This document shows, piece after piece, positions 16,486 through 35,812 of a stretch of 64,000 nt of DNA. The DNA comes from an uncultured Gemmatimonadales bacterium (GTDB lineage: Bacteria > Gemmatimonadota > Gemmatimonadetes > Gemmatimonadales > GWC2-71-9). The stretch is taken from positions 160,001 to 224,000 of the forward strand of contig CAVSQW010000007.1 in NCBI GenBank assembly GCA_963730185.1, written 5' to 3'. The position numbers and the translations under genes were made by a program. How positions within the stretch are numbered: position 1 is the stretch's first letter; each line of letters starts with the position of its first letter. Under the pieces are notes generated by a model, which searched no databases, was not told where the DNA came from, and saw nothing but the letters and a program-made list of their open reading frames with translations.

Positions 16486-17259
16486 TCAGCTGAGCATCCC
16501 CGTGGTGGGCGACGACGGCACCGCGATCTCGCGCCGCGGCATCCGCCCGGCCAGATAGGCGTCGCGTCCAGCCAGCACCGCATGCCGCATCGCCCTCGCC
16601 ATCAGGATCGGGTCGAGCGCCTCGGCCAGGGCCGTGTTCATCAGGATCCCATCCACGCCCTGCTCCATCACCAGGCAGGCGTCGGACGCGGTGCCGACCC
16701 CGGCGTCGACGATCACCGGCACGGTGAGCCGGCGCTTGATGGTCCGGATCGAGTATGGATTGATCAGGCCCAGGCCCGACCCGATCGGCGAGGCGAGCGG
16801 CATCACGGCGGCGCAGCCCGCGTCCTCCAGCCGGAGCGCGGTGATCAGGTCGTCGTTGGTGTAGGCCAGCACCTGGAAGCCCTCCTTGACCAGCGTCCGG
16901 GCGGCCGCCAGGAGGCCGTCCACGTCGGGCAGCAGGGTCTCCCGGTCGCCGATCACCTCGAGCTTGACGAACTCGTTGAAGCCGGCCTCGCGGCCCAGTC
17001 GGGCATAGCGCACCGCCTCGTCGGCGCTGTAGCAGCCGGCCGTGTTGGCGAGCAGGAAGAACCGCTCCGGCGAGAGATGATGCAGGATGCCTTCCTGGTT
17101 GGCCCGGTCGAGATCGACCCGGCGGACGGCCACGGTGACGACCTCGGCGCCGGCGGCGTCGATCGCGGCCACCATCTCCTCGTTGGACCGGTACTTCCCG
17201 GTGCCGACGAAGAGGCGGGAGTGGAAGGGGTGGTTGGCGATCGTGAAGAAGTCGGACAT
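16486..17259 (-). CDS. thiG: Thiazole synthase
   Basis: SRLFVGTGKY, NTAGC, KLEVIGD, MPLASPIGSG and DAGVG motifs. Confidence 0.96.
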   Translation of the reverse strand: MSDFFTIANHPFHSRLFVGTGKYRSNEEMVAAIDAAGAEVVTVAVRRVDLDRANQEGILHHLSPERFFLLANTAGCYSADEAVRYARLGREAGFNEFVKLEVIGDRETLLPDVDGLLAAARTLVKEGFQVLAYTNDDLITALRLEDAGCAAVMPLASPIGSGLGLINPYSIRTIKRRLTVPVIVDAGVGTASDACLVMEQGVDGILMNTALAEALDPILMARAMRHAVLAGRDAYLAGRMPRREIAVPSSPTTGMLS

Positions 17260-17311
17260 GTCGCGCAGCTCCAGACGGACGGACTGACTGACAGACGGAC
17301 GGACGACGAGC

Positions 17312-17524
17312 TCAGCCGCCGCCGACGAAATGTACGATCTCGATGGTGTCGCCGTCGGCAACCGGCGCGCCGGGGAGATCGGCCCGGCGGACGATGGCTC
17401 GGTTCCGCTCGACGACCACGGCGCGGGGGTCGAGGCCGAGATGCGCGAGAAGCTCCACCAGCGTGGCGAGGGTCGGGACGGTGCGGGCCTCGCCATTGAT
17501 GGTCAGGATCATCGAGTCACTCAT
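17312..17524 (-). CDS. thiS: Sulfur carrier protein ThiS
   Basis: INGE start, C-terminal IEIVHFVGGG. Confidence 0.93.
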   Translation of the reverse strand: MSDSMILTINGEARTVPTLATLVELLAHLGLDPRAVVVERNRAIVRRADLPGAPVADGDTIEIVHFVGGG

Positions 17525-18138: not shown

Positions 18139-19076
18139 CCGAGTCGGGCCTCGGCCGGCAGAGGGTGGCCCCGGAGCCACTCGTCGGCCGGCATCCTGGT
18201 CCGCCCGGCCGGCTGGACCTCCCCGATCCGGACCGCCCCCGTTCCGGCGGCGACGACCAGGGCGCCGTCGGCGGCGACCAGGGTGCCGCCGACGGTGATC
18301 GGCCCGCCGGGCGTCCCGGCGCCGGCCACGACCCGGGGGCGGAAACACTTGAGCTCGAGCCCGCCTAACGAGGTCCACGCGCCCGGTACCGGATCGAAGG
18401 CCCTGATCCGGCGGGCCACCTCGTCGCCCGACCGGGTCCAGTCGATCCGAGCCGTCTCCCGACCGATCTTCGGGGCCAAGGTGGCCAGCGACGGATCCTG
18501 GGGCGTCGCCTCGGCAGCATCGTCGAACCGGTCCAGGACGTCGACCAGGGCGCCGGCGCCGAGCCGGGCGAGCCGCTCGGTGAGGTCGCCGCCGGTCTCA
18601 TCCGGGCCGATCGGGGTCGCCTCCCGGCCCAGCATCGGCCCGCTGTCCATTCCCGCGTCCATCCGCATGATGGTGACCCCCGTCTCCCGGTCTCCCGCCG
18701 CGATCGCCCACTGGATCGGGGCGGCGCCGCGATGGCGGGGCAGGAGGCTCGCGTGGACGTTGATCATCCCGTGCCGGGGGATGGCCAGGATCTCCGGCCG
18801 AAGGATGTGCCCGTAGGCGACGACCACGCCCAGGTCCGGGGTCAGGTCCCGGAGCCAGCCGGCGAACGGGTCGCCGCGGGGCCGCTCCGGTTGGGACACG
18901 GGGACGCCGGCAGTCTGGGCGCGGACCTTCACGGGGGGAGCGACGAGGGTGGAGCGGGAGCGTCCTCGGGGGCGGTCCGGCTGGGTGACCGCCGCCACGA
19001 CCGGGTGGCCGCGTTCGAGCAGGGCCTCGAGGCTCGGCACGGCGAACGCAGGCGTGCCGAAGAACACGATCCGCAT
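18135..19076 (-). CDS. fmt: Methionyl-tRNA formyltransferase
   Basis: FFGTPAFA, VTQPDRP and INVHASLLPRHRGAAPI motifs. Confidence 0.96.
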   Translation of the reverse strand: MRIVFFGTPAFAVPSLEALLERGHPVVAAVTQPDRPRGRSRSTLVAPPVKVRAQTAGVPVSQPERPRGDPFAGWLRDLTPDLGVVVAYGHILRPEILAIPRHGMINVHASLLPRHRGAAPIQWAIAAGDRETGVTIMRMDAGMDSGPMLGREATPIGPDETGGDLTERLARLGAGALVDVLDRFDDAAEATPQDPSLATLAPKIGRETARIDWTRSGDEVARRIRAFDPVPGAWTSLGGLELKCFRPRVVAGAGTPGGPITVGGTLVAADGALVVAAGTGAVRIGEVQPAGRTRMPADEWLRGHPLPAEARLG

Positions 19077-19608
19077 CAGGATCGGGCGCCGTCCTCCGGC
19101 ACGACCTTCTTCACCACCGCCTCGCCTCGATGCTCCTTCTTCCAGCGCTTGAGCAGCATCTGGCGCTTGAGCATGCTCACGTGGTCGAGGAAGAGAATCC
19201 CGTCCAGGTGGTCGATCTCGTGCTGGACCGCCCGCGCCACGTGACCGTCGAGCTCGCGCCGATACGGCTCGCCCTCGCGATCCAGGGCCTCCACCACGAT
19301 CCGGGCGGGCCGGGTCACCTCGGCGTAGAGCTCGGGAATCGAGAGGCAGCCCTCTTCGCCCCGGGAGCTGCCCTCGGCGCTGAGGATCACGGGGTTCACC
19401 ATGGCGAACCGGTCGCCGTCGATGCCCACCACCGCCACCCGCCGGGTCACCCCGACCTGATTGGCCGCGAGCCCGACGCCCTTGGCGGCGTCCATGGTCT
19501 CGAAGAGATCGTCGATGAACTGCTTGACCTCGTCATCCACCTCCGCGACGTCGTCGCTCCGGGTCCGGAGCACGGACGACCCCAGGAGGTGCAGGTCCAA
19601 CAACGACA

Positions 19609-19609
<1 letters not shown>
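19076..19609 (-). CDS. def: Peptide deformylase
   Basis: GVGLAANQVG, EGCLS and QHEIDHLDG motifs. Confidence 0.96.
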
Positions 19610-21966
<2,357 letters not shown>

Positions 21967-22130
21967 GTCTGCCTTTCCGTGAGGCGTCCCTAAGAGGTAC
22001 CGTCCCTCGCTCTCCGCGTCCATCCGTCCCCGCGGTCCCGCCCCCTTCGGCCTCCCCCTCAGCCCCCGCGTCCCCCGTCGCCCCCGCTTCCATCGTCCTC
22101 GTTCCCCCGTTCCTCCGGGTCCACCAACCG

Positions 22131-23624
22131 TCACGCGGCCGTATGGCGATACAGGTGGCGTACGCCCGGGTCACCCAGCCCGGCGTGATTGAAGGGCGCG
22201 ATCAAGCGGGCGATCTCGGCCTCGAACCCCGCGTCGTCGTCCGGGCGGCCGGCCAGCCGGGCGTCGAGCGCGGCCCCGGCCTGCCGCGCCAGCAGTCGAA
22301 CCGCGGGATCGTCCGCCAGGAAGAGCGCTCCGGTCCGGTCGCCGCCGGTCGTCCGTCGCTTCTCCCAGGTGGTGACGGCGGCGAAGAACACCAGACTGAA
22401 GGCCCGGAAGAGCGGGAACCGGCCCATCGCGCGGTAGCATCCGCCCACCAGCTCGTCGATCAGGGCCAGCTCCGCCTGGACGAGGCTCTCATAACCCGTC
22501 ATGGCTCGATCCAGGGAGGAACGCCCCCAGTGCTCGCCCAGGTCCGTGGCCAGCCGCTCGACGCCGTGCATCGTCTGGGCGATCCCCGTGCTGTGGAGCG
22601 GATCGACGAATCCGGCCGAATGGGGAAGGAGCGCCCAGGTGGGGCCGGCGGCGGGGCGGAGCCGGCGCTGGAGGCGCCCGGTCCGGCGGAGGCCCCCGGC
22701 CGGCGCTACCAGCTCCGCGCCGGCGAACTGCCGGGCGACCGACGGCAGGCGGCTGAGCAGGGCACCCCATTCCTCGCCGGGTGGCCGCCCGGGATCCAGG
22801 GGATGGCGTCGGAAGTCGAGCGCGAATCCCGCGCTGGTCACCCCGTCGTCGAACCGGAGCGTCCACATCCAGCCGCCGTCGAACACGTGGTGCAACGCCG
22901 CGCGGTCGCAGGGGAAAGGATGGTCGTCGATCCGGCCGCCGCCTCGCTCCAGCACCTCGGCCCAGGGCGGGACGCCCCGGAAGTGCCCGAACAGGGCCCG
23001 CGAGGCGGTGGTCATGGTCGCGCGCTGGTCGGCGAGCGAGAGCGGCTCCCGGAGCAGCCCGGCGTCGCCGGTGGCGTCGACCAGGAACCGGGCCGCGATC
23101 GTCACCGGCCGGTCCAGCCGGGCGCCCTCGAGACGCCAGCCGTTCGGGGCGGTCCGGGCCGCGACCTCGGTCCGGTCCAGGAACTCGACGCCCGCGTCGC
23201 GGGCTTCGTCCACCAGAAAGGCGTCCACGGCCGACCGGAGCCAGTGGGTGTCGGCCTGGTCCTCGCCGACGCTCGCGGCCACCAGCAGCTCGTTGCCGTG
23301 GGCTGGGTCGGGGACGAAGGCAGCCCCGGCCTGGTGCCCGAAGTAGCTGAACCCCCGCTTCGGGCCGCGGGTGAGGTCGGGATAGGCCCGACACCAGCTT
23401 CCGTAGCGGGTCAGCGGGGCCAGGCGGGGCAGGTCGTAGCGCCGGGCCAGGTCGCCGAGGATCAGGTCGGCGGCGGGGGTGGACGACTCACCGATGGCGA
23501 AGCGGGGGTGGTGTGCCCGGTCCAGGAGCACCACTCGTCTCCCGAGCCGGGTCAGGATCAGGGCGAGCAGGCTCCCCCCGAACCCCGAGCCGGCGATCGC
23601 GACGTCGCAGTCCAGGACCCTCAC
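22131..23624 (-). CDS. FAD-dependent halogenase-like oxidoreductase (tryptophan halogenase family)
   Basis: GSGFGG, HPRFAIGES, K in GPKRGF, WMW (WxWxI-like) and FVDPLHSTG. GTG start overlaps the upstream stop. Confidence 0.85.
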   Translation of the reverse strand: MRVLDCDVAIAGSGFGGSLLALILTRLGRRVVLLDRAHHPRFAIGESSTPAADLILGDLARRYDLPRLAPLTRYGSWCRAYPDLTRGPKRGFSYFGHQAGAAFVPDPAHGNELLVAASVGEDQADTHWLRSAVDAFLVDEARDAGVEFLDRTEVAARTAPNGWRLEGARLDRPVTIAARFLVDATGDAGLLREPLSLADQRATMTTASRALFGHFRGVPPWAEVLERGGGRIDDHPFPCDRAALHHVFDGGWMWTLRFDDGVTSAGFALDFRRHPLDPGRPPGEEWGALLSRLPSVARQFAGAELVAPAGGLRRTGRLQRRLRPAAGPTWALLPHSAGFVDPLHSTGIAQTMHGVERLATDLGEHWGRSSLDRAMTGYESLVQAELALIDELVGGCYRAMGRFPLFRAFSLVFFAAVTTWEKRRTTGGDRTGALFLADDPAVRLLARQAGAALDARLAGRPDDDAGFEAEIARLIAPFNHAGLGDPGVRHLYRHTAA

Positions 23625-24568
23625 GCGCCGCAGGGCTCGCAGCGAACCGCCGGGAGGATCCGCTGGTCGAGGTTCATCCGGTGGAGCCGCTCGCGGCGGT
23701 CGGCGCGGCAGTGGGGGCAGGCGGCGACCTGCTCGAAATCCCAGAGATCCATGAAGACCCGCCCCCGGCCGAGCCCGATCCCGGCCGCCAGGGCGCGCTC
23801 GATGGCGCCGAGCGAAGGCGGCCCGGCTCGGCCCTCGCGCGCGAGCTTGGCCAGCAGTCCGCCGTCGGTCCGAGTGGGCACCATCGCGACGCACCCGACC
23901 CCCCGCTCGAACGCCCACTGGGCCGATCGAATCGCCCAGTCGACCCCTTCCTCGTCGCCGAGGAAGGGCGGGCGAAGCAGGACGAAGGCCCGAACCGCGA
24001 TGTCGCTCCGGAGCAGCCGGTCCACGGCCCGCGCGAAATCGTCCAGCGTCATCCGCTTGTTGAGGGCGGGGAGGACCTCCGGGTGGACCGTCTCGAGTCC
24101 CAGCGCCACCTCGAGGCCGGTCCCGAGCCGATCCCGAAAGGCGTCACACCGCTCGTCGGTCAATCGGGGGTGGTTCTCGACGATGACGGTCTCGAACCCG
24201 CCAACCCGCTCGACGATCGCGACGTGGTCGGCGGGCGGAATCGCGCGAGGGTCGAAGAAGTTGCCGGCGTTGTAGAGCTTGATCTGACGGGCGGGTGGCA
24301 GCACCGCGAGTGCCCGATCGAGCTGCGCCGGGATCGCGCCGACCGGCACGGTCTCGTTCGTGGTTCCGGCCCAGAGGTCGCACATCAGACAGCGGAAGGG
24401 GCACTCGCGGTTGGTGAGCAGCACCGTCGCGACGCTCACCACTTCGCCTGAGGCGGAGCGCTCCGGCTCGACGAAGAAGCCTTGGGGTCGGGTCGGGTCG
24501 ACCGGCCGCTTGGGGCCCCGGGCCGCGAGGATCTCGCGATCGGTGGCCCGGGCGACTCCCTCAGGCAT
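23621..24568 (-). CDS. Radical SAM protein resembling archaeosine synthase RaSEA
   Basis: CPFRCLMC (CxxxCxxC), IKLYNAGNFFD, EVALGLET, NK, FVLLRPPFL and PPSL. Confidence 0.85.
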   Translation of the reverse strand: MPEGVARATDREILAARGPKRPVDPTRPQGFFVEPERSASGEVVSVATVLLTNRECPFRCLMCDLWAGTTNETVPVGAIPAQLDRALAVLPPARQIKLYNAGNFFDPRAIPPADHVAIVERVGGFETVIVENHPRLTDERCDAFRDRLGTGLEVALGLETVHPEVLPALNKRMTLDDFARAVDRLLRSDIAVRAFVLLRPPFLGDEEGVDWAIRSAQWAFERGVGCVAMVPTRTDGGLLAKLAREGRAGPPSLGAIERALAAGIGLGRGRVFMDLWDFEQVAACPHCRADRRERLHRMNLDQRILPAVRCEPCGA

Positions 24569-25886
24569 GGAGCGCCGCGAACGCCTTTCGGTAGCCGGAC
24601 TCGTCGGCCGGAAACAGCGCATCGAAGCCGCTCCGCCGGACGGCGCCGTGCTGGAAGCGGCGCTTCTCGAAGGCCGGCATGGCCAGACCGGTGACCGCCC
24701 GGACGCCCCGGGTGACGATCTCACCCTTGAGGGCGTAGAGCTTGTCGGGGTCGAACCCGGTGAGCTCGACGAACGGGATCCCCTCGGCCACTTCGATGAC
24801 GTTGGGCACGGCGTAGGGGCTGAACCCCTCGAACCCGAGGGCCCGGGCCGGCGCCCAGGACCGGACCTGGCCGCGGCTCTGGCCGCCCGAGTAGGTGAGC
24901 GAGTGCTTGACGGCCTCGACTCCCCAGCCCTCCTGGTAGAGCATCAAGTTGTTGAGCACGCTCCGAATGGTGAGCTCCGAGTTCTCCTCGATCGGGTAGT
25001 CCTTGAGGTTCTCGTCGCCGCCGTCCCCATCCACCAGATACCGCCAGTCGGGATACCGGGCCCGAATGCCCCGGCAGAGCGCCAGCGCCATGGTGGCGGA
25101 CTGGACGTCGAGCGGCTTGTAGTCTTCGATGACCCGGATGGCCTCGCGATAGTCGAGCGCGTCAGGCGAGACCTCGATCGGTTCCAGGAACATGCCGAGG
25201 CCCAGCGCGTCGAGAAACCGGCGGGCCTGGTCGAGGTCGGGGCCGCCGCCGTCGACGGCGAGCGTGAACGCCTTGAGCCGGGCCGGCGACTGTCCCCGGC
25301 GGAGGAGGCGGTGATAGAGGGCCAGAAAGACGGAGCCGCTGTCGATCCCGCCGGAAAAGGGCACCCCGATCGGCGCGTCGGGCTCGACGTGATCGAGCCA
25401 GCGGTCGAGCTCCCGCGCGAGCGTCGCGACGTAGGTCCAGCCGATTTCGTCGAGATCGGTGCCGAGGCGGTTCCGTTCCGGCGTGAAGTACCGGACCGGC
25501 GTGGGATTGGGGTCCGGGCACCCCACCAGGGCCAGCTCCACCACGTAGTGGGCCGGCACCATTCTGGTGTAGGACGGGTGGAACTGTCCGGCCAGCCCTT
25601 CGCTCTCCAGGAAGGCCCGGATCTCGTCGATCCGCTCGGCGATCACGAGACACGGCCCCTCCGCCCGCTTGGCGAGGAAGAAACGCATCGGGCGCCCGAT
25701 CGAGCGGGCCATCCGGACTGTGATCCCCTGCTTGTGGACCAGGGCGAAGACGCCGTCGATCTCGCGGACCTGGGTCGGGTCGCCGGAGCCGACCCGGGCG
25801 GTCGCTTCGTCCACCGACATGTTGAAGAGCGTGTTCGCAGAGGGGTCCAGCAGATTGACGAGACGTTCGACGGTCGTGGTATGCAT
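24561..25886 (-). CDS. Asparagine-synthetase-related ATP pyrophosphatase with a truncated glutaminase domain
   Basis: PP-loop FSGGIDS, DGDGGDE, KxxF (KRRFQHG). N-terminus keeps GxFA and AR..GRP remnants but has no Cys1. Confidence 0.85.
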   Translation of the reverse strand: MHTTTVERLVNLLDPSANTLFNMSVDEATARVGSGDPTQVREIDGVFALVHKQGITVRMARSIGRPMRFFLAKRAEGPCLVIAERIDEIRAFLESEGLAGQFHPSYTRMVPAHYVVELALVGCPDPNPTPVRYFTPERNRLGTDLDEIGWTYVATLARELDRWLDHVEPDAPIGVPFSGGIDSGSVFLALYHRLLRRGQSPARLKAFTLAVDGGGPDLDQARRFLDALGLGMFLEPIEVSPDALDYREAIRVIEDYKPLDVQSATMALALCRGIRARYPDWRYLVDGDGGDENLKDYPIEENSELTIRSVLNNLMLYQEGWGVEAVKHSLTYSGGQSRGQVRSWAPARALGFEGFSPYAVPNVIEVAEGIPFVELTGFDPDKLYALKGEIVTRGVRAVTGLAMPAFEKRRFQHGAVRRSGFDALFPADESGYRKAFAALHA

Positions 25887-25944: not shown

Positions 25945-26493
25945 TCAGGGCTCCCGATCCACCGCCTGCCGCAGGAAGGCCGGCCGGACGACGGGCTCGC
26001 GGGCGACGCGAATCACGATCTCGATCTGCTCGAGCAACTCGGCCTGTTCGTGGTGGTCGCCGGGAGCAGTCGCCACCTCACTCCTGAGCGCGAGGAGATC
26101 GGACTCGCGGCGAGCCCGGTCGCCGGGGCCGGCCGGCGTACCGCGGAGGCGCTCCAGCCGACGGCGGAAGGCGGCGAAGCGGTACGACGTGCCGCCGACG
26201 GGGCTGATCAACGTCAGACCACCGGCGACGAAGGTGCCCAGGCCCACGCCGGCGAGCACGGCCCGGGTCGTGGTGAAGCCGGCGATCCCGGATCCAAACG
26301 CGGAGCCGAGCAGGCCCAGCAAGCTCACGGCGCCCGTGGCGACCAGACCGATCCCGACCAGGCCCCGCCGCTGACGGAGCCGCTCCTTCCAGCCGCCGAG
26401 CTGGCCCGCCGCCGCGATCATGCCGACCGACGATGCGAGGAGCGTCAGCCCCACGCCGATCAGCTGGCCGACCGAGCCGGTGGAGCTCGCCAT
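25945..26493 (-). CDS. Hypothetical membrane protein (about 3 TM helices plus a soluble C-terminal tail)
   Basis: Hydrophobic segments. Fills the gap between co-oriented genes. Confidence 0.6.
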   Translation of the reverse strand: MASSTGSVGQLIGVGLTLLASSVGMIAAAGQLGGWKERLRQRRGLVGIGLVATGAVSLLGLLGSAFGSGIAGFTTTRAVLAGVGLGTFVAGGLTLISPVGGTSYRFAAFRRRLERLRGTPAGPGDRARRESDLLALRSEVATAPGDHHEQAELLEQIEIVIRVAREPVVRPAFLRQAVDREP

Positions 26494-26512: not shown

Positions 26513-28432
26513 TCAGTGGAGCCAACGGTCGAACCAGGCGACGAACCGCCGGGTCCGGTCCAGGAGGTGCTTCTCTTCGCGGAGTCCGTGGCCTTCCCGG
26601 GGATAGACCACCAGCTCGGCCGGCACGTCGTAGCGCTTGAGCGCCCGGTAGAGCATCTGGCTCTGGGCCAGCGGGTCGGTGGTATCGTCCTCGCCCTGGA
26701 GGATCAGCGTCGGGGTGTGGGCCCGGGTGATGTAGGTCAGCGGGGAGCTCTTCCGGAACCCGTCGGGTCGCTCGTACGGGGTGCCGTAGAACCACTCGTC
26801 GTACGCCGGGCCGGCCTCGGTGCCGAACTCGGTCGCGAGGTCGCTCATCCCGGCGCCGGTCACCGCCGCCTTGAAGCGGTCGGTCTGGGTGATGGCCCAG
26901 GAGGCCATGTAGCCGCCGTAGGACCAGCCCCCGATCCCCAGCCGGCTGGGGTCGGCGACACCCCGGCGAACCAGCTCGTCCACGCCGGCCATGATGTCCT
27001 GGAAGTCGCGGCCGCCCCAGTCGGCCCGATTGGCCGCCAGGAAGGCAAACCCATAACCCGTCGACCCCCGAGGGTTCGGGTAGAACACGGCGTAGCCCTT
27101 GGCGGCGAGCAGCTGCCCCCAGCCCTCGAAGCGATCGCCCCACGCCCCGGTCGGCCCCCCGTGGACCAGCACCACCAGCGGGAGTCGGGCGTTCGGCGCC
27201 CGGTCGGCCGGCAGGAGGAGGGCGCCCTCGATCGCCTGGCCGTCGACGCTTCGGTAGCGCACGATCTCGGGCGCGATCACCGGGAGCGAATCCCAGCGGG
27301 CGTTGAGCATGGTGATCCGCCGGGCCGCGCCCGGTCCGCTCTGGCGCCAGAGCTCCGGCGCCCGGGTCGCGGTCTGTCCCACGAAGAGGAGCGACCCGTC
27401 GGCGAGCGTCACCGCGTCCGAGGGATGGGGCGACGGGGTCGGGAGCGCCGTCGAGCGGCCGCCGGTCGTCAGCCGGGCTCGCCGAACCTCGAACCCGTCG
27501 GGGTAGAGCAGGTCGAGCGTCCCGTCCTGCTCCCAGCGATAGTCCTGGACCGGCCGGTCGATCGTCCCCGCGGTGAGGTTCCGGGCCGGTCCGCCGGCGA
27601 GCGGCAGCAGGTAGAGGTCGTGCGGGACCGGACCGTCCACCCTCGCTCCCTGGTAGGAGAGCAGGGCGCCGTCGGGCGAGACCTCGAGTCCGCCGATCGG
27701 CCCGGTTGGCGCCGCCACCAGCCGGGGGATCGAATCCCGAACCCCGATCGTGTAGAGCGCCTCGGTCCAGCGGTCGCTCTCGGGATGGTCGGTGGCGATC
27801 AGGGCCAGCCGGTCGCCGCTCGGGAGCCAGACCAGGTCGCGGACGGTCCAGGGGGCCGCCGTCATCCGGTGGACCTCGCCCGAGGGCAGGTCGAGCAGCC
27901 AGAGGCTCGCGGGCCGGTCGTCCCGGTCCACCACCCGGGCGTCGTCCTTGTCCTTTCGGCGCTGCTCCTCTTCGTCGGTCGGCGGCGGGGCCGCCACGAA
28001 GGCGATCCGCCGCCCATCCGGCGCCCAGGCGAACTGCCGCACCGCCGACTTGCCCTTGGTCAGCGGTCGGGCTTCGCCGCCGTCGAGCGGCAGCAGCCAG
28101 ATCTGGGGCCGGTCCACCCGGTCCGAAAGGAACGCCAGGGAGCGCCCATCGGGCGCGAACCGGGGCGACCACTCGCTCCGGCTCGAGCTGGTGAGCTGCC
28201 TCGCGCTGTCGGCGCCCAGCTGGAAGAGGAACACGTGCTGGGGCTGATCGGTACCGGAGACCGGCTCCTGGACCACGAACGCGGCCGCCCGGCGGTCCGG
28301 CGCCAGCTCGAGGTCGCGGAGCGAGCGGCGGTCGAGGGTGATCTCGGGCGTGATCTGGGCCGACGCCGGCGCGGCGAAGACGAGGACGAGCAGCGTCTGA
28401 ACCGGGAGGAGCCGGCGGAGAGTTCGGATCAT
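26513..28432 (-). CDS. S9 family peptidase (acylaminoacyl-peptidase-like, beta-propeller plus alpha/beta hydrolase)
   Basis: Signal peptide, PD40-like repeats, HGGP, NPRGSTGYG, GWSYGG and EGHG. Confidence 0.93.
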   Translation of the reverse strand: MIRTLRRLLPVQTLLVLVFAAPASAQITPEITLDRRSLRDLELAPDRRAAAFVVQEPVSGTDQPQHVFLFQLGADSARQLTSSSRSEWSPRFAPDGRSLAFLSDRVDRPQIWLLPLDGGEARPLTKGKSAVRQFAWAPDGRRIAFVAAPPPTDEEEQRRKDKDDARVVDRDDRPASLWLLDLPSGEVHRMTAAPWTVRDLVWLPSGDRLALIATDHPESDRWTEALYTIGVRDSIPRLVAAPTGPIGGLEVSPDGALLSYQGARVDGPVPHDLYLLPLAGGPARNLTAGTIDRPVQDYRWEQDGTLDLLYPDGFEVRRARLTTGGRSTALPTPSPHPSDAVTLADGSLLFVGQTATRAPELWRQSGPGAARRITMLNARWDSLPVIAPEIVRYRSVDGQAIEGALLLPADRAPNARLPLVVLVHGGPTGAWGDRFEGWGQLLAAKGYAVFYPNPRGSTGYGFAFLAANRADWGGRDFQDIMAGVDELVRRGVADPSRLGIGGWSYGGYMASWAITQTDRFKAAVTGAGMSDLATEFGTEAGPAYDEWFYGTPYERPDGFRKSSPLTYITRAHTPTLILQGEDDTTDPLAQSQMLYRALKRYDVPAELVVYPREGHGLREEKHLLDRTRRFVAWFDRWLH

Positions 28433-28684: not shown

Positions 28685-29151
28685 CTAGGGCGGGGACCGA
28701 TCGGTCGAGTTGGGAGCGTCGAGTCGGTAGCAGGGGTGCCGGAGTCCGGTCGGCGGATAGAGCTCGTCGTGGGTGGGGCGGAATCCCAGCCGTTCGAGCC
28801 GCCGCTTCGACGGAGCGTTGTCGGGGTGATGGCCGGCGAAGAGGAACCGGGCCCCGAGGGTCTCGAAGGCGTGGGCGATCGTGGCCCCCGCGGGCGGAGT
28901 CCGGCCGCCCCGACGAGGTCGCCGGTGGGTCGGAGGAAGACGGGCCAGTACTGCACCCCGTGAGACGTCGCCATCGCGATCTCGGCGGCGAGCCGCGCCG
29001 CGACCTCGGCCGCCGACCATGGGCCGCCGATCAGCCGGGCGACCTCGGGGTCGCCCCAGAGCGCCAGCGCCAGGTCGAGGTCGGTTCTCCGCCAGCGGCC
29101 GAAGCCGAGCCGGGGTGTGGTGAGCCACCAGTCGGACACCGCTCCGCTCAA
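28685..29151 (-). pseudogene. RimJ/RimL-type GNAT acetyltransferase with internal deletion and frameshift
   Basis: N-half (TPRL...GAAGLRP) and C-half (IAHAFETLG...HHPDN.PS...LERLGF) are in different frames. The usual ELG...WG.G.ATE acetyl-CoA motif is missing. Confidence 0.7.
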
Positions 29152-30674
29152 GCGACCCGGAAGACGCCGACTCTCCCGGCCCGGCCCCGGAGCTCCAGGT
29201 CGCCGACCCGGGCCAGCGGGGGTGGGGCGGTCAGCGCCGCCGCCAGGGTCTCCGACACCAGAATCTCGCCCGGGTCGGCCCGTCCGCAGAGCCGGGAGGC
29301 GACGTTGACGGTGTCGCCTAACACGCTGTACTCGAGCCGGCGCTCGCTCCCGAGGTAGCCGGCGAAGACGTCGCCGGTGGCGAGCCCGATCCCAATCGCG
29401 ATCGGGGGCCGGGTCCCGGTCCAGCGCCGGTTGAGCTCCCCGACCCGCGCCTGCATCTGCTGCGCGGCCGCCAGGGCGCGGTCGGCGTCGTCGGGCTCGG
29501 TCAGGGGCGCGCCCCAGACCGCCATCAGGGCGTCGCCGATGAACTTGTCGAGCGTGCCGCCGTGGTCGAAGACCAGATCCACCATCTCGGTGAAGTAGTC
29601 GGTCAGGAGCGCGGCGACCTCTTCGGGGCGGAGCCGCTCGGCCAGGGGCGTGAAGCCCCGGATGTCGGCGAAGAGCACTGTGGCCACCCGCCGCTCACCG
29701 CCCAGGGCCACCGCGTCGGTCTGGCGGGCGATCCGCTCGGCCACGTTGGGGGCGAAGAACCGCTCGAAGTTCGCCCTCACCTGGGCCTCGCGATGCATCG
29801 CCTCGGCGTAGCGGATCTTGCCGATCGCCACGGCCGCGATCCCGCCGAAGGCGAAGAGCAGGGTCGCCTCCTCCTCGGTGAAGCCCCGGGTGGCGGTCAG
29901 CGAGTCGGCGTAGAGCACGCCGAGGACCTGGTCTTCGGACCCAAGGAGAGGGGTCGCGATCGCGCTCCGGACGCTCTGGAGCATCACCGAGCCGCTTCGG
30001 AGCCGCTCGTCCGCGGCCGCGTTGTCGGTGATGATCGGGGCCCGGTCGTCCACCGTGCGCTGGGCGATCGAGCGGGGCACCCGCATCCCGGCCGGATCGC
30101 TGACCCGGCTCCGGGAGAGCGCCGGGACCAGCTCGCCGGAGCGGGCGTCGAGCAGGAGGAGGGACACCCGGTCGACGGGCAGGAGGTCGAAGGTGCCCTC
30201 CACCACGGCGGCGATCAGCGAGTCGAGCTCGAACTCGCCCGAGAGGCGCTTGGCCAGATCGAGGAGCCGAGCCAACCGCTCGGCGTGCGGTCCCGGCGGC
30301 GCGGTCGCCGTCCCGACCGGCGCGAAGCCGCGACCCACGGACACGGCCCGGACCACGGTCTCCGCGGTGCCCGGGTCCAAAGGCGCGGGGGTGCCGCCCT
30401 CGACCCGGTAGCTCACCTTCCCGAAGGTCACCGTGTCGGTCGGAGTCAGGAGGCCCTCCACGATCCGGGCGCCGTTGATCGCGGTCCCGTTGGAGCTCTC
30501 CAGGTCGCGGACCCGGACCCCGGCCGGGGTAACCCGGAGCTCGGCGTGCCGGCGGGAGACGGTGACGTCGGGGACGCTCAGGTCGCTGGCGGCCGAGCGT
30601 CCGACCACCACCGCCCGATCGTCGGGGAGGATCAGCTCGTGCTCATGGCCGAGACCGTGGAGTCGCCAGGACAT
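29148..30674 (-). CDS. FHA-GAF-class III adenylate/guanylate cyclase
   Basis: FHA motifs VGR..SRRHA..SNGT, a GAF domain, and cyclase motifs LFADIRGFT, DKFIGDA and GDTVNVASRL. Confidence 0.92.
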   Translation of the reverse strand: MSWRLHGLGHEHELILPDDRAVVVGRSAASDLSVPDVTVSRRHAELRVTPAGVRVRDLESSNGTAINGARIVEGLLTPTDTVTFGKVSYRVEGGTPAPLDPGTAETVVRAVSVGRGFAPVGTATAPPGPHAERLARLLDLAKRLSGEFELDSLIAAVVEGTFDLLPVDRVSLLLLDARSGELVPALSRSRVSDPAGMRVPRSIAQRTVDDRAPIITDNAAADERLRSGSVMLQSVRSAIATPLLGSEDQVLGVLYADSLTATRGFTEEEATLLFAFGGIAAVAIGKIRYAEAMHREAQVRANFERFFAPNVAERIARQTDAVALGGERRVATVLFADIRGFTPLAERLRPEEVAALLTDYFTEMVDLVFDHGGTLDKFIGDALMAVWGAPLTEPDDADRALAAAQQMQARVGELNRRWTGTRPPIAIGIGLATGDVFAGYLGSERRLEYSVLGDTVNVASRLCGRADPGEILVSETLAAALTAPPPLARVGDLELRGRAGRVGVFRVA

Positions 30675-33504: not shown

Positions 33505-33559
33505 CCGGTCGTCGCGCGGAAGTATTATTGGGAAGCTGACTTAGGGGGAATTACGAAAC

Positions 33560-35812
33560 TTGTTGTTTTCGGATGAGTGGCTGGTCCCGGCCCTGGGAAC
33601 CCTGATCCCTGAGAATGTCGTCGCCGAGCTTCGCAAGACGGTGGCGGGGTCCGGTGTGTCGCTTTGGCAGGCCGTCCTCGACCGGCGCCTTCTGCCCGAG
33701 GACGAGATCCTCAAGACCGTCGCCAGCCGGTTCCGGATGCCGATCGCCGATCTGGGGGCGGTCGACCCCCGGGTCCGTGACGAGGTGCCGGAGCAGCTGG
33801 CCCGCCGGTTCCACGTGGTGCCTCTCCATTTGACCGACAGCCGGCTTCGGGTCGCAACCGCCAATCCGTTCGACATGGACGCGGAGAAGATGCTGGCGTT
33901 CGCGACCGGTCGAGAGGTGCGGCTCGAGCTCTGCTCGCCCCAGCGGATCCGGGAGAAGCTCGACGAGCTCTACCGTCCCGACGACCTGGTGGAGCAGCTG
34001 CTCGGGGGGATGACCGAAGAGGCCGAGGTCACCCAGCTGGGCGACGAGGCGGACGATCTCGCGGTCAGCGCCGAGGAGGCCGCGGCCCGTCCCATCATCA
34101 AGCTGGTGGACACCCTGCTCGCCGACGGGATCACCAGCCGGGCCAGCGACATTCACGTCGAGCCGGTGGAAGGTGGCGTGGTGGTCCGCTACCGGATCGA
34201 CGGGGTGCTTCGCCAGGTCATGCGGATCCCCCGATCGGCGGGTGTCCCGCTGATCTCCCGGATCAAGATCATGTCGGGCATGGACATCGCGGACCGGCTC
34301 CGGCCCCAGGATGGCCGCTGCCGGGTGGCGGTGAACGGCAACCCGGTTGACCTCCGGGTGTCGACCCTGCCGGCCTCGCTGGGCGAGAAGGTGGTGATTC
34401 GGATCCTCAACGCCCGGGCCACCCTGCTGTCGCTCAAGGCGCTTGGGTATTCGGACGAGGAGCGGTACGCCATCGAGCGGCTGCTCGACCAGAAGGAAGG
34501 GATCCTCCTCGTCACGGGCCCCACCGGGTCGGGCAAGACCACGACGCTCTATGCGGCGCTCCGCCAGGTTCAGGGCGAGGGCGTCAACATCGTGACGGTG
34601 GAGGATCCGGTCGAGTATCGCCTGGGGCAGAACATCGTCCAGGTGCAGGTCAACGAGAAGGCGGGGCTCACCTTCTCGTCGGCGCTTCGGTCGATCCTCC
34701 GGCAGGATCCCGACGTGGTGCTGGTGGGTGAGATCCGGGATCGGGAGACGGCCCAGATTGCGGTCCAGGCGTCGCTCACCGGCCACCTCGTGCTGTCCAC
34801 CCTGCACACCAACGACGCGCCCAACTCCGTGACCCGGCTCCTCGACATGGGGATGGAGGCGTACAAGATCGGCTCGGCGCTCCGCGGGGTAGTGGCCCAG
34901 CGGCTGATGCGGCGGCTCTGTCCCACCTGCCGGGTGGAGTCGACCGAACCCCTTCCCGCCAAGCTGGCGGCCTACCTGGCGGAGGGGGCGACGCTCTACC
35001 GGGCGGTGGGATGCTCGGAGTGCGCCCAGACCGGGTACCGCGGTCGTTTCGGCATTCTGGAAGTGCTCGCGATGAACCAGACGCTGGAGCGGCTGGTTTC
35101 GTCGGGGGCGAACGCCGACGTGATCGCGAAAGTGGCCCGGGCCAACGGGATGAAGTCGCTGTTCGAGTCGGCGATTCGTCACGTCCTGAGCGGCGAGACC
35201 TCGGTCGAAGAGCTGCTCCGGGTGACGGACCCGCCCCGTCTGGATCTCGACCCGCCGCCGGTCGAGGCGCCCCGCCCGCGCCGGGACAGCCGGCCCGAGC
35301 CCCGGCCGCGACCGTCGCGCCCGCACCCCACCTTGGCGGTCGAGGCGACTCGGGTCGAAGTGGACGACCTCTCGCCCGCGTTCGAGCTGCTGGAAGAGCA
35401 CCAGCTGCCGCCGGCCCGCTTCGAGCTGACCCGGAAGGGCGCCGTGGTGCTGCTGGTCGACGACGAGGACCAGCTCCGCCGGGTCATGCGCGACCTGCTC
35501 GAGCACGAGGGGTACACCGTGGTCGAGGCGCGGGACGGCGCCGAAGCGCTCGCCGAGGTGGACCGGAGCGCGCCCGACTTGATGATCCTCGACCTGAACC
35601 TGCCGAACGTCGACGGATATACCGTGCTGGGGCAGCTCCGGTCGCGCGACGCCACCCGGAACCTCCCGATCATCGTGCTCACCGCCAAAGCCGACGAGGA
35701 CAACGAGGTCCGGGTCCTCGAGCTCGGCGCCGACGATTTCCTCACCAAACCCTTCCGGGCCCGGGCCCTCGGGGCCCGGCTCCAGAGCATGCTGGCCCGT
35801 CACCGCGCGTGA
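33560..35812 (+). CDS. GspE/PilB secretion ATPase fused to a C-terminal receiver domain
   Basis: [37 protein letters not shown], tetracysteine motif. REC domain has DD, D-LNLP, T and KP. Confidence 0.92.

Follow-up and report, generated by a model that had tools for sequence, protein, structure and literature searches.

A stretch of 64,000 nucleotides from an uncultured Gemmatimonadales bacterium (contig CAVSQW010000007.1, positions 160,001 to 224,000; hereafter the window) contains three overlapping genes which encode an AsnB-like ATP-dependent ligase (the ligase), a radical S-adenosylmethionine enzyme (rSAM) resembling the archaeal RaSEA, and a flavoprotein of the flavin-dependent halogenase family (the flavoprotein). 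This trio is a functional unit that is gained or lost as a block across phyla, and it possibly represents a self-contained, mobile module which builds or tailors a small amide-type metabolite, perhaps a halogenated one; the probability of this reading is put at about 0.4. Known superfamilies and a known two-enzyme logic appear here in a new three-enzyme combination. A pattern scan with one genome per species confirmed at least 555 loci, and at least six phyla among the best 80 carry this coupled unit, which no described pathway explains. No description of the trio was found in openly readable full text (papers available by subscription only lay outside this search), in line with the initial annotation of the window, which was made from the sequence alone and knew of no characterised pathway with these three enzymes.

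The best 80 loci of the scan (hereafter the foreign loci) were examined further. They are mostly from Planctomycetota, and also from Rhodothermales, Bacteroidota, Gemmatimonadota, Acidobacteria and a metagenome-assembled genome labelled Deferribacteres. The gene order ligase-rSAM-flavoprotein recurs in Planctomycetota, Rhodothermota, Bacteroidota, Gemmatimonadota, Acidobacteria and Deferribacterota. Sufficient flanking sequence on both sides is available for 68 of the 80 loci; 37 of these hold all three genes in this order, 14 have the rSAM gene without a ligase nearby, nine without a flavoprotein nearby and eight without either partner. A ligase that is not adjacent is encoded elsewhere in all five genomes tested (776-817 bits), a non-adjacent flavoprotein in three of five. 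The trio is also present in cultured strains, for example Roseithermus sacchariphilus (L004) and Maioricimonas (L006).

Within the phylum of the window the distribution is all-or-none. In a sample of 151 genomes the same 14 hold the rSAM, the ligase and the flavoprotein, and the remaining 137 hold none of them; two unpublished genomes (G128, G089) were flagged in a sample of the same size, and neither is among the 14 carriers. The three genes are adjacent on one contig in all carriers, with one gene split across contig ends in G132 and G035. Given the same order in dozens of loci from other phyla and the strict co-occurrence at the genome level, the clustering of the trio exceeds chance. A lack of co-occurrence in other genomes would have spoken against a coupled cassette as proposed in the initial annotation; this objection falls away because the trio is conserved elsewhere.

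The structure of the locus (Table 1) was read directly from the sequence, and every detail of the three co-oriented genes with their two overlaps is as first described. In the window, whose G+C content is about 71%, the three open reading frames (ORFs) stand head to tail with a coding-type G+C content at third codon positions. The ligase/rSAM junction is an 8-nt overlap, ATGCCTGA, at 24561-24568, where the ligase end L-H-A-stop (CTC CAT GCC TGA) lies over the rSAM start M-P-E-G (ATG CCT GAG) within CTCCATGCCTGAGGG. At the rSAM/flavoprotein junction a 4-nt GTGA overlap at 23621-23624 places the rSAM end G-A-stop (GGC GCG TGA) over the GTG start of the flavoprotein (GTG AGG GTC) within GGCGCGTGAGGGTC. 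The ATG at 24568 taken as the rSAM start matches the N-termini of homologues, and the starts used for the whole trio are consistent with such N-termini. In several other genomes, e.g. G086, G047 and G044, the profile-match coordinates of the three genes likewise abut or overlap.

Both junctions are also represented in long proteins. A search with the rSAM profile, read with precomputed Pfam domains, returned ten of them: three ligase-rSAM proteins (P0124, P0126, P0131), four rSAM-flavoprotein proteins (P0127-P0130), one rSAM-FHA protein and two without domains. The long trio proteins may be rare true fusions or read-through, assembly or sequencing errors at the 4- to 8-nt overlaps, the latter because all of the long proteins found with the rSAM profile are single-member clusters. 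The ligase-profile search gave six long proteins, one of them fused to DUF6807. P0136 (31 members) was rejected as a fusion, as its N-terminal extension looks like a mis-called low-complexity ORF, and P0137 (33 members), judged by length and Pfam match alone, was assumed to be the same kind of artefact. Fusion partners were thus discarded as a clue to the substrate, the other long forms being artefacts or singletons. The three enzymes probably work as a complex; a complex prediction for ligase and rSAM scored 0.00, which counts neither way.

Further searches at the level of the locus added little. A promoter and terminator scan gave nothing exceeding background, and a search of the ESM Atlas with the trio proteins returned only the families' own clusters. 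Among sequencing runs, the best DNA matches are labelled soil metagenomes and contain 0.33 and 0.23 of the sampled words; no RNA run was among the matches listed.

Table 1 Features of the window; positions are those of the whole stretch of 64,000 nucleotides
Feature	Position	Strand	Remarks
Gene 1, AsnB/beta-lactam-synthetase-like PP-loop ATP-dependent ligase	24561-25886	minus	441 aa; PF00733
Gene 2, radical SAM enzyme (rSAM), RaSEA/MnmL/Elp3 branch	23621-24568	minus	315 aa; PF04055, TIGR01210
Gene 3, flavin-dependent-halogenase-family flavoprotein, CtcP/PltM branch	22131-23624	minus	497 aa, GTG start; PF04820
tgt	19935-21107	minus	about 1 kb downstream of the trio; TIGR00430, 466 bits; then def, fmt
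ORF on the flavoprotein side	21130-22134	minus	likely start about 21966
ORF on the ligase side	25945-26493	minus	182 aa; stops 58 nt before the ligase gene
Weak hairpin	25957-25945		after the 182-aa ORF
S9 prolyl-oligopeptidase-family protein	26513-28432
FHA-GAF-adenylate/guanylate cyclase fusion	29148-30674	minus	508 aa
Type II/IV secretion ATPase (MshEN + T2SSE)	33545-35812	plus	755 aa; C-terminal response-regulator receiver domain
Peptide deformylase, longest ORF	19076-19954	minus	about 120 residues preceding the Pfam domain
ThiG, longest ORF	16486-17496	minus	about 85 residues preceding the Pfam domain

The ligase belongs to the Asn_synthase family, with 49.0 bits on PF00733 (cut-off 21), and fails the asparagine synthase equivalog TIGR01536 (39.1 bits against 267.1). 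Its catalytic motifs are intact. Among 28 homologues S178, G180, D182 and S183 of the PP-loop SGGIDS are invariant, and so are D286, G287, D288, G289, D291 and E292 of a DGDGGDE motif (G290 in at least 90%), which aligns with SGEGSDE of Escherichia coli AsnB (1ct9), as well as K408, R410, F411, Q412 and G414 in the stretch K-R-R-F-Q-x-G near the C-terminus. The protein starts with MHTTT and therefore lacks Cys1, the nucleophile of an N-terminal nucleophile (Ntn) glutaminase; the homologue consensus MH..VERVV has no Cys at position 2 either, and the Ntn-like N-terminal domain is short. A PP-loop enzyme without the N-terminal catalytic Cys had been proposed for gene 1, and this description holds. 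It is not the housekeeping asparagine synthetase, as two full AsnB genes are located elsewhere in the genome (507 and 458 bits).

The AlphaFold2 model of the ligase, built from the homologue alignment, has a predicted local distance difference test score (pLDDT) of 85.6. Its best Foldseek matches are about equal and comprise beta-lactam synthetase (1mc1, 1mbz, 1jgt), human ASNS, E. coli AsnB, CarA (1q19) and TsnB9, with E-values from 6e-12 to 7e-9 and template modelling (TM) scores of about 0.55-0.64; the top matches, at a TM score of about 0.6, fit an AsnB fold with a vestigial N-terminal domain. Beta-lactam synthetase and CarA both have the AsnB fold and a glutaminase domain without function; they adenylate a carboxylate and form an amide. 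Residues 297-334 of the ligase are nearly invariant and among the most conserved, yet they have a pLDDT below 50 and stay unmodelled, a behaviour which would be expected of a loop that becomes ordered on a substrate or a partner.

The rSAM passes the cut-off of PF04055 (36.5 bits against 29.5), and its only substantial NCBIfam match is TIGR01210, the RaSEA family (89.1 bits, E 3e-25, residues 39-260 of 315), which stays below the equivalog cut-off of 212.15 bits. TIGR01210 is the best match for all 28 members of the rSAM family compared (best E 1.5e-35). The profile of MnmL/YtqA/YhcC, TIGR01212, matches only 14 of the 28, and weakly, and scores 16 bits on the rSAM of the window, so that the suggested likeness to RaSEA stands. 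The CxxxCxxC motif, also noticed from the sequence at the outset, reads CPFRCLMC, with C56, C60 and C63 invariant in 28 sequences. Outside the RaSEA match lies an additional C-terminal CxxC...CxxC (C284, C287, C310, C313), of which C284, C287 and C310 occur in at least 90% of the sequences and C313 is invariant only in the first set of 12 sequences. The AlphaFold2 model (pLDDT 95.1) has the radical-SAM domains of Elp3 (5l7l, 8asw_C) as best solved folds, and no RaSEA structure is among the fold matches listed. SPASM and twitch domains gave no match in the Pfam and NCBIfam searches. Relatives of the rSAM are numerous (more than 6,500 at E ≤ 0.001) and typically about 60% identical across phyla.

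For gene 3 the family assignment of the initial annotation holds. The flavoprotein belongs to the Trp_halogenase family (PF04820, 48.6 bits against a cut-off of 21) and possesses the motifs GSGFGG, of the GxGxxG type, and FVDPLHSTG. In a search of PDB sequences it matches the tetracycline 7-halogenase CtcP (7xgb, E 5.7e-49) and PltM (6bza, E 2.4e-37), and the homology spans about 410 residues. The motifs GxGxxG, HPRFxxGE and FxDPxxSxG are kept, and so is the Lys of G-x-K: all 29 sequences compared share K89, and in the alignment it corresponds to the Lys in GQK of CtcP and in GIK of PltM, which is taken here to be the catalytic lysine of these enzymes. The expected WxWxIP motif, however, is degenerate, with GWMWTLRF in place of GWMWIIPF (CtcP) and GWLWVIPF (PltM); the I-P is kept in CtcP, PltM and RadH. 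The change is a property of the family, since the consensus of 45 members is WMWxLR (both Trp at least 98%, Leu at least 90%, Arg at least 70%). The flavoprotein is therefore halogenase-like rather than a proven halogenase. NCBIfam profiles of QhpG, GoxB and LodB match with 67, 42 and 26 bits, all far under their cut-offs. CtcP and PltM act on free phenolic small molecules; QhpG, GoxB and LodB are flavoproteins which mature protein-derived quinone cofactors. Of the three profiles suggested for the trio, PF00733 and PF04820 are thus passed and TIGR01210 is matched below its cut-off.

The module is self-contained, with no conserved precursor peptide, transporter or other partner. All-against-all clustering of the ORFs of at least 90 amino acids in the foreign loci gave no further conserved neighbour. 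DUF1501, the next cluster with ten loci, was rejected as a partner because it is a multi-copy planctomycete family, and DUF1559 and FG-GAP proteins are multi-copy families as well. Beside rSAM genes that lack one partner no shared ORF was found, the neighbours being mutually unrelated, and solitary ligase or flavoprotein genes have no shared neighbour from a Pfam family. Within 900 nt of 33 complete trios no small ORF of at least 25 amino acids is conserved beyond sets of near-identical genomes, which makes an adjacent precursor peptide unlikely. A conserved gene for an RRE, a protease or a B-protein was not found near the trio. An origin from phages or defence systems was dismissed, as PADLOC assigned no family to the three proteins and both flanking ORFs, and two pattern scans found no relatives of the trio in viral contigs. 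With a length of 3.8 kb, no requirement for a further dedicated gene and cultured strains among its carriers, the trio is directly testable.

The patchy distribution is accompanied by signs of horizontal transfer. In the genus of the window the rSAM is present in only three of 21 other genomes. A concatenated tree of the three proteins was calculated for 40 trios, i.e. the window and those 39 of 93 loci in which each tblastn match covers at least 90% of the window protein; 54 loci, including L093 and L094, were left out, and the tree is unrooted, comes from a quick search and allows no donor to be named. Ten of the eleven copies from the window's own phylum form one clade (SH-aLRT 100). The window copy lies inside a group of Planctomycetota and Rhodothermota, and the separating branches have supports of 95, 98 and 100. 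Its identity to the copies of its own phylum is 58-62% for the ligase, 39-52% for the rSAM and 39-47% for the flavoprotein, as against 70-76%, 60-65% and about 50-60%, respectively, to the best foreign copies. Because the window copy groups with Planctomycetota and Rhodothermota and not with its own phylum, sequence comparison suggests that the trio was acquired by horizontal transfer, and the agreement of tree and identities points to an accessory block which moves between phyla. In one of the three other carriers of the genus (G010:C26:17935-18800, L089/L094) the rSAM gene is interrupted by a TGA and its match falls into two parts, which would fit a decaying copy or a sequencing error.

For the proposed module a three-step reaction can be suggested by analogy. 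The glutaminase-less ligase would adenylate a carboxylate and couple it to an amine or to the amino group of an amino acid, or else close it intramolecularly as in beta-lactam synthetase. The 5'-deoxyadenosyl radical of the rSAM could then cut the new N-C(alkyl) bond, and this N-dealkylation would leave a primary amide or amine. Finally, the CtcP/PltM-like flavoprotein might halogenate or hydroxylate an electron-rich ring of the same molecule. Such a two-step amidation fits an enzyme that cannot make ammonia from glutamine and is locked to an rSAM of the RaSEA/MnmL type. The chain drawn in the initial annotation, with ligation of an amine, radical cleavage to an amide and subsequent chlorination, is likewise an argument by analogy, and substrate, order of steps, N-dealkylation and halogenation are all inferred in this way.

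The analogy for the rSAM step comes from RaSEA and MnmL, whose reactions both cut an N-alkyl bond and leave the nitrogen on the substrate. The MnmC(o) step is an N-dealkylation from cmnm5 to nm5, in which the carboxymethyl group is removed, and the same type of reaction is assumed for MnmL. According to a preprint, MnmL/YhcC replaces MnmC in mnm5s2U synthesis (bioRxiv 10.64898/2026.05.18.725915); MnmL belongs to the same rSAM branch as the trio enzyme, but in addition to the low score of the latter on its profile no AsnB-like or halogenase-like partner is described for MnmL in the text covered. In Euryarchaeota, RaSEA in complex with ArcS turns preQ0-Lys15 of tRNA into archaeosine with lysine as the nitrogen donor (PMC11298593). 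The trio resembles this pair in that RaSEA is the best family of its rSAM and that an amine-attaching enzyme is paired with a small rSAM. It differs in the score of the rSAM (89 versus 212 bits) and the extra C-terminal Cys4 outside the RaSEA match, in a partner which is an AsnB-like PP-loop ligase and not a TGT/PUA-type ArcS, in a third, obligatory-looking partner, the flavoprotein, and in its bacterial host, its patchy distribution and the missing link to tgt or preQ0 genes; the genome itself has no ArcS. The sub-cut-off score, the missing ArcS and the different partner place the trio outside the ArcS-RaSEA system, with which it shares at most the logic. If ligation followed by radical dealkylation were true, the archaeal strategy in which an amino acid serves as a masked source of ammonia would extend to bacteria, with another ligase and with added flavin chemistry.

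A combination of an AsnB-like enzyme and a flavin halogenase is known from ammosamide biosynthesis, where the AsnB-like amidotransferase Amm20, for which formation of a primary carboxamide is proposed, and the halogenase Amm3 act on one aromatic acid substrate (PMC12715798). These enzymes are likened to those of the trio at the superfamily level. The ammosamide genes, in contrast, form a large cluster derived from a ribosomally synthesised and post-translationally modified peptide, with a precursor peptide and PEARLs, and their pathway involves no true radical SAM enzyme. If the flavoprotein of the trio halogenates, its product would be a widespread organohalogen of soil and marine bacteria.

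Several observations weigh against a small-metabolite module of this kind. To our knowledge, every characterised relative of the rSAM (RaSEA, MnmL/YhcC, Elp3) acts on tRNA and not on small molecules. The rSAM reaction may differ altogether from that of RaSEA, given 89 versus 212 bits and a C-terminal Cys4 region outside the match. Halogenation is uncertain because the flavoprotein family has WxWxLR in place of WxWxIP. Moreover, the flavoprotein was not found in two of the five genomes tested for a non-adjacent copy, the completeness of which is not given, and it may therefore be dispensable. The conservation of the ligase across phyla (58-76% identity) is unusual for a tailoring enzyme of secondary metabolism. 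Finally, no transporter, regulator, flavin reductase, resistance, scaffold-building or export gene is linked to the trio, so that nothing ties the module to secondary metabolism specifically; CtcP and PltM differ from the flavoprotein in this respect too, since no polyketide or other scaffold-building gene lies near the trio.

Other substrates or reactions have to be considered alongside the small-metabolite module. The ligase might close a lactam in the manner of beta-lactam or carbapenam synthetase, the rSAM might carry out another radical step on a C-C or C-H bond and the flavoprotein might be a monooxygenase. This would agree with the beta-lactam synthetase (1mc1, 1mbz, 1jgt; E about 1e-11) and CarA (1q19) structures among the best ligase folds, with the degenerate tryptophan motif of the flavoprotein family and with an rSAM far under the RaSEA cut-off. 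However, this fold search gave human ASNS and E. coli AsnB equally good scores, the identity of the ligase to beta-lactam synthetase and CarA is only 13-19%, and the ligase has its own invariant 297-334 segment. A carboxyethylarginine synthase, a CarB-like protein or another pathway partner that would supply a beta-amino-acid substrate is not conserved nearby, and the invariant K89 would not be needed by a plain monooxygenase. A lactam-forming trio is unlikely. Modification of a protein or ribosomal peptide encoded elsewhere, e.g. amidation of a side chain or C-terminus together with halogenation or hydroxylation of Tyr or Trp, appears still less probable. Glutaminase-less AsnB-like lasso-peptide cyclases do adenylate Asp or Glu side chains of peptides, the succession of ligase, rSAM and oxygenase recalls the EF-P enzymes EpmA/B/C, and the sub-cut-off matches to QhpG, GoxB and LodB point in the same direction. 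On the other hand, the flavoprotein is far nearer to CtcP (E 6e-49) and PltM (2e-37) than to QhpG (1e-18), the rSAM lacks a SPASM/twitch match, and the absence of a conserved small ORF around the 33 complete trios and of an RRE, protease or B-protein gene sets the trio apart from lasso-peptide cyclase systems. Nor does the trio count as an asparagine synthetase, a beta-lactam/carbapenam pathway or a lasso-peptide system. That gene 1 is an ordinary ammonia-dependent asparagine synthetase with fortuitous neighbours, as its intact PP-loop and AsnB-type motifs might indicate, has practically no probability left: it is already contradicted by the strict three-way co-occurrence, by 39 bits on TIGR01536 against 267, by the two full AsnB genes at other sites of the genome and by the absence of the ligase family from 137 of 151 related genomes.

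That the module modifies a nucleic acid, with a tRNA base as the likeliest target, is quite improbable, too. In this case the ligase would load a carboxylated base with an amino acid, the rSAM would trim the latter in the manner of RaSEA or MnmL and the flavoprotein would oxidise or halogenate the base. The characterised rSAM relatives are tRNA enzymes (TIGR01210 in 28 of 28 members, TIGR01212 in 14 of 28, Elp3 as best fold), the C-terminal CxxC...CxxC of the rSAM could be a zinc ribbon, and a need for no further biosynthetic genes is expected for a ubiquitous macromolecular substrate. The patchy distribution even within a genus, by contrast, is difficult to reconcile with it, and the nearest solved relatives of the flavoprotein, CtcP and PltM, have small-molecule substrates. 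Neither the three proteins (Pfam and NCBIfam searches for PUA, THUMP, TRAM and other RNA-binding domains) nor the long forms (trio fusions, FHA, DUF6807 and the two domainless proteins) contain an RNA-binding domain. The three families are acidic on average, with median isoelectric points of 5.5, 5.7 and 6.2, which counts as weak evidence against a nucleic-acid substrate and leans slightly towards a small molecule. The tgt gene close to the trio in the window, discussed below, was seen beside it nowhere else. More specifically, a new tRNA or rRNA modification, in which the rSAM trims the amino acid attached by the ligase and the flavoprotein then halogenates or hydroxylates the base, is very unlikely; if true, it would provide the first case of a nucleoside halogenated by an enzyme and, in bacteria, a parallel to the ArcS-RaSEA logic of archaea.

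A modified 7-deazapurine, which the initial annotation had listed among the possible products, did not hold up. That the trio and the neighbouring tgt act together on such a base, queuosine- or archaeosine-like, could be imagined from the position of tgt on the same strand about 1 kb downstream (TIGR00430, 466 bits) and from the RaSEA-like rSAM, but the distribution already contradicts it and it is extremely improbable. In searches with the respective proteins tgt, def, fmt and the two flanking ORFs were absent from the 80 foreign loci and from the loci of five relatives. Of the 13 other carriers in the phylum sample, 12 have tgt on a separate contig or, in the case of the single-contig genome G134, at a distance of 2.6 Mb, and for the thirteenth (G132) only a partial match on another contig is listed. 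Furthermore, tgt is present in all 151 sampled genomes of the phylum, the trio in 14, and a gene for a cupredoxin-like lipoprotein lies between tgt and the trio in the window. The adjacency is accidental, and the trio is independent of tgt and the queuosine genes. The genome has a normal QueC of its own (239 bits), and the idea of a QueC replacement was discarded for this reason. A search of the whole genome (82% complete) with the ArcS profile NF040592 matches only tgt (29.7 bits against a cut-off of 440), and no MnmL exceeding the cut-off was found in the genome.

The two ORFs flanking the trio were both rejected as further members. For the ORF on the flavoprotein side a GTG overlapping the stop of the flavoprotein gene is a formally possible start; the likely start, however, is a Met followed by a signal peptide of the lipoprotein type. 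The ORF has paralogues in the genome and was never found with the trio elsewhere, which excludes it as a fourth coupled gene. Its product resembles a secreted lipoprotein with two repeats, in which Cys...His...Met recalls type-1 copper (cupredoxin) sites. It fits no family in Pfam or NCBIfam, and its three paralogues elsewhere in the genome are 29-37% identical. The ORF on the ligase side encodes a Gly/Ala-rich predicted membrane protein and is followed by a weak hairpin; it has no family match and stands beside the trio in no other locus.

In other trio loci of the phylum, including L090, L092, L096, L098, L100 and L101, different neighbours occur. When 12 such stretches were compared, eight contained giant FG-GAP/ASPIC(UnbV)/TPR proteins of 1,170-1,430 amino acids and four an RnfD/NqrB-like membrane protein, which lies directly upstream of the ligase in L090; neither is present in the window, and both probably reflect shared synteny.

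Elsewhere in the window, an FHA-GAF-adenylate/guanylate cyclase fusion and a type II/IV secretion ATPase with a C-terminal receiver domain were observed. The longest ORFs of peptide deformylase and ThiG extend upstream of their Pfam domains, and these extensions are probably over-long start calls in GC-rich DNA, although ThiG could be a fusion. The S9 prolyl-oligopeptidase-family protein has more than 40 tblastn matches on 11 contigs of the genome (G000), which points to a large paralogous expansion.

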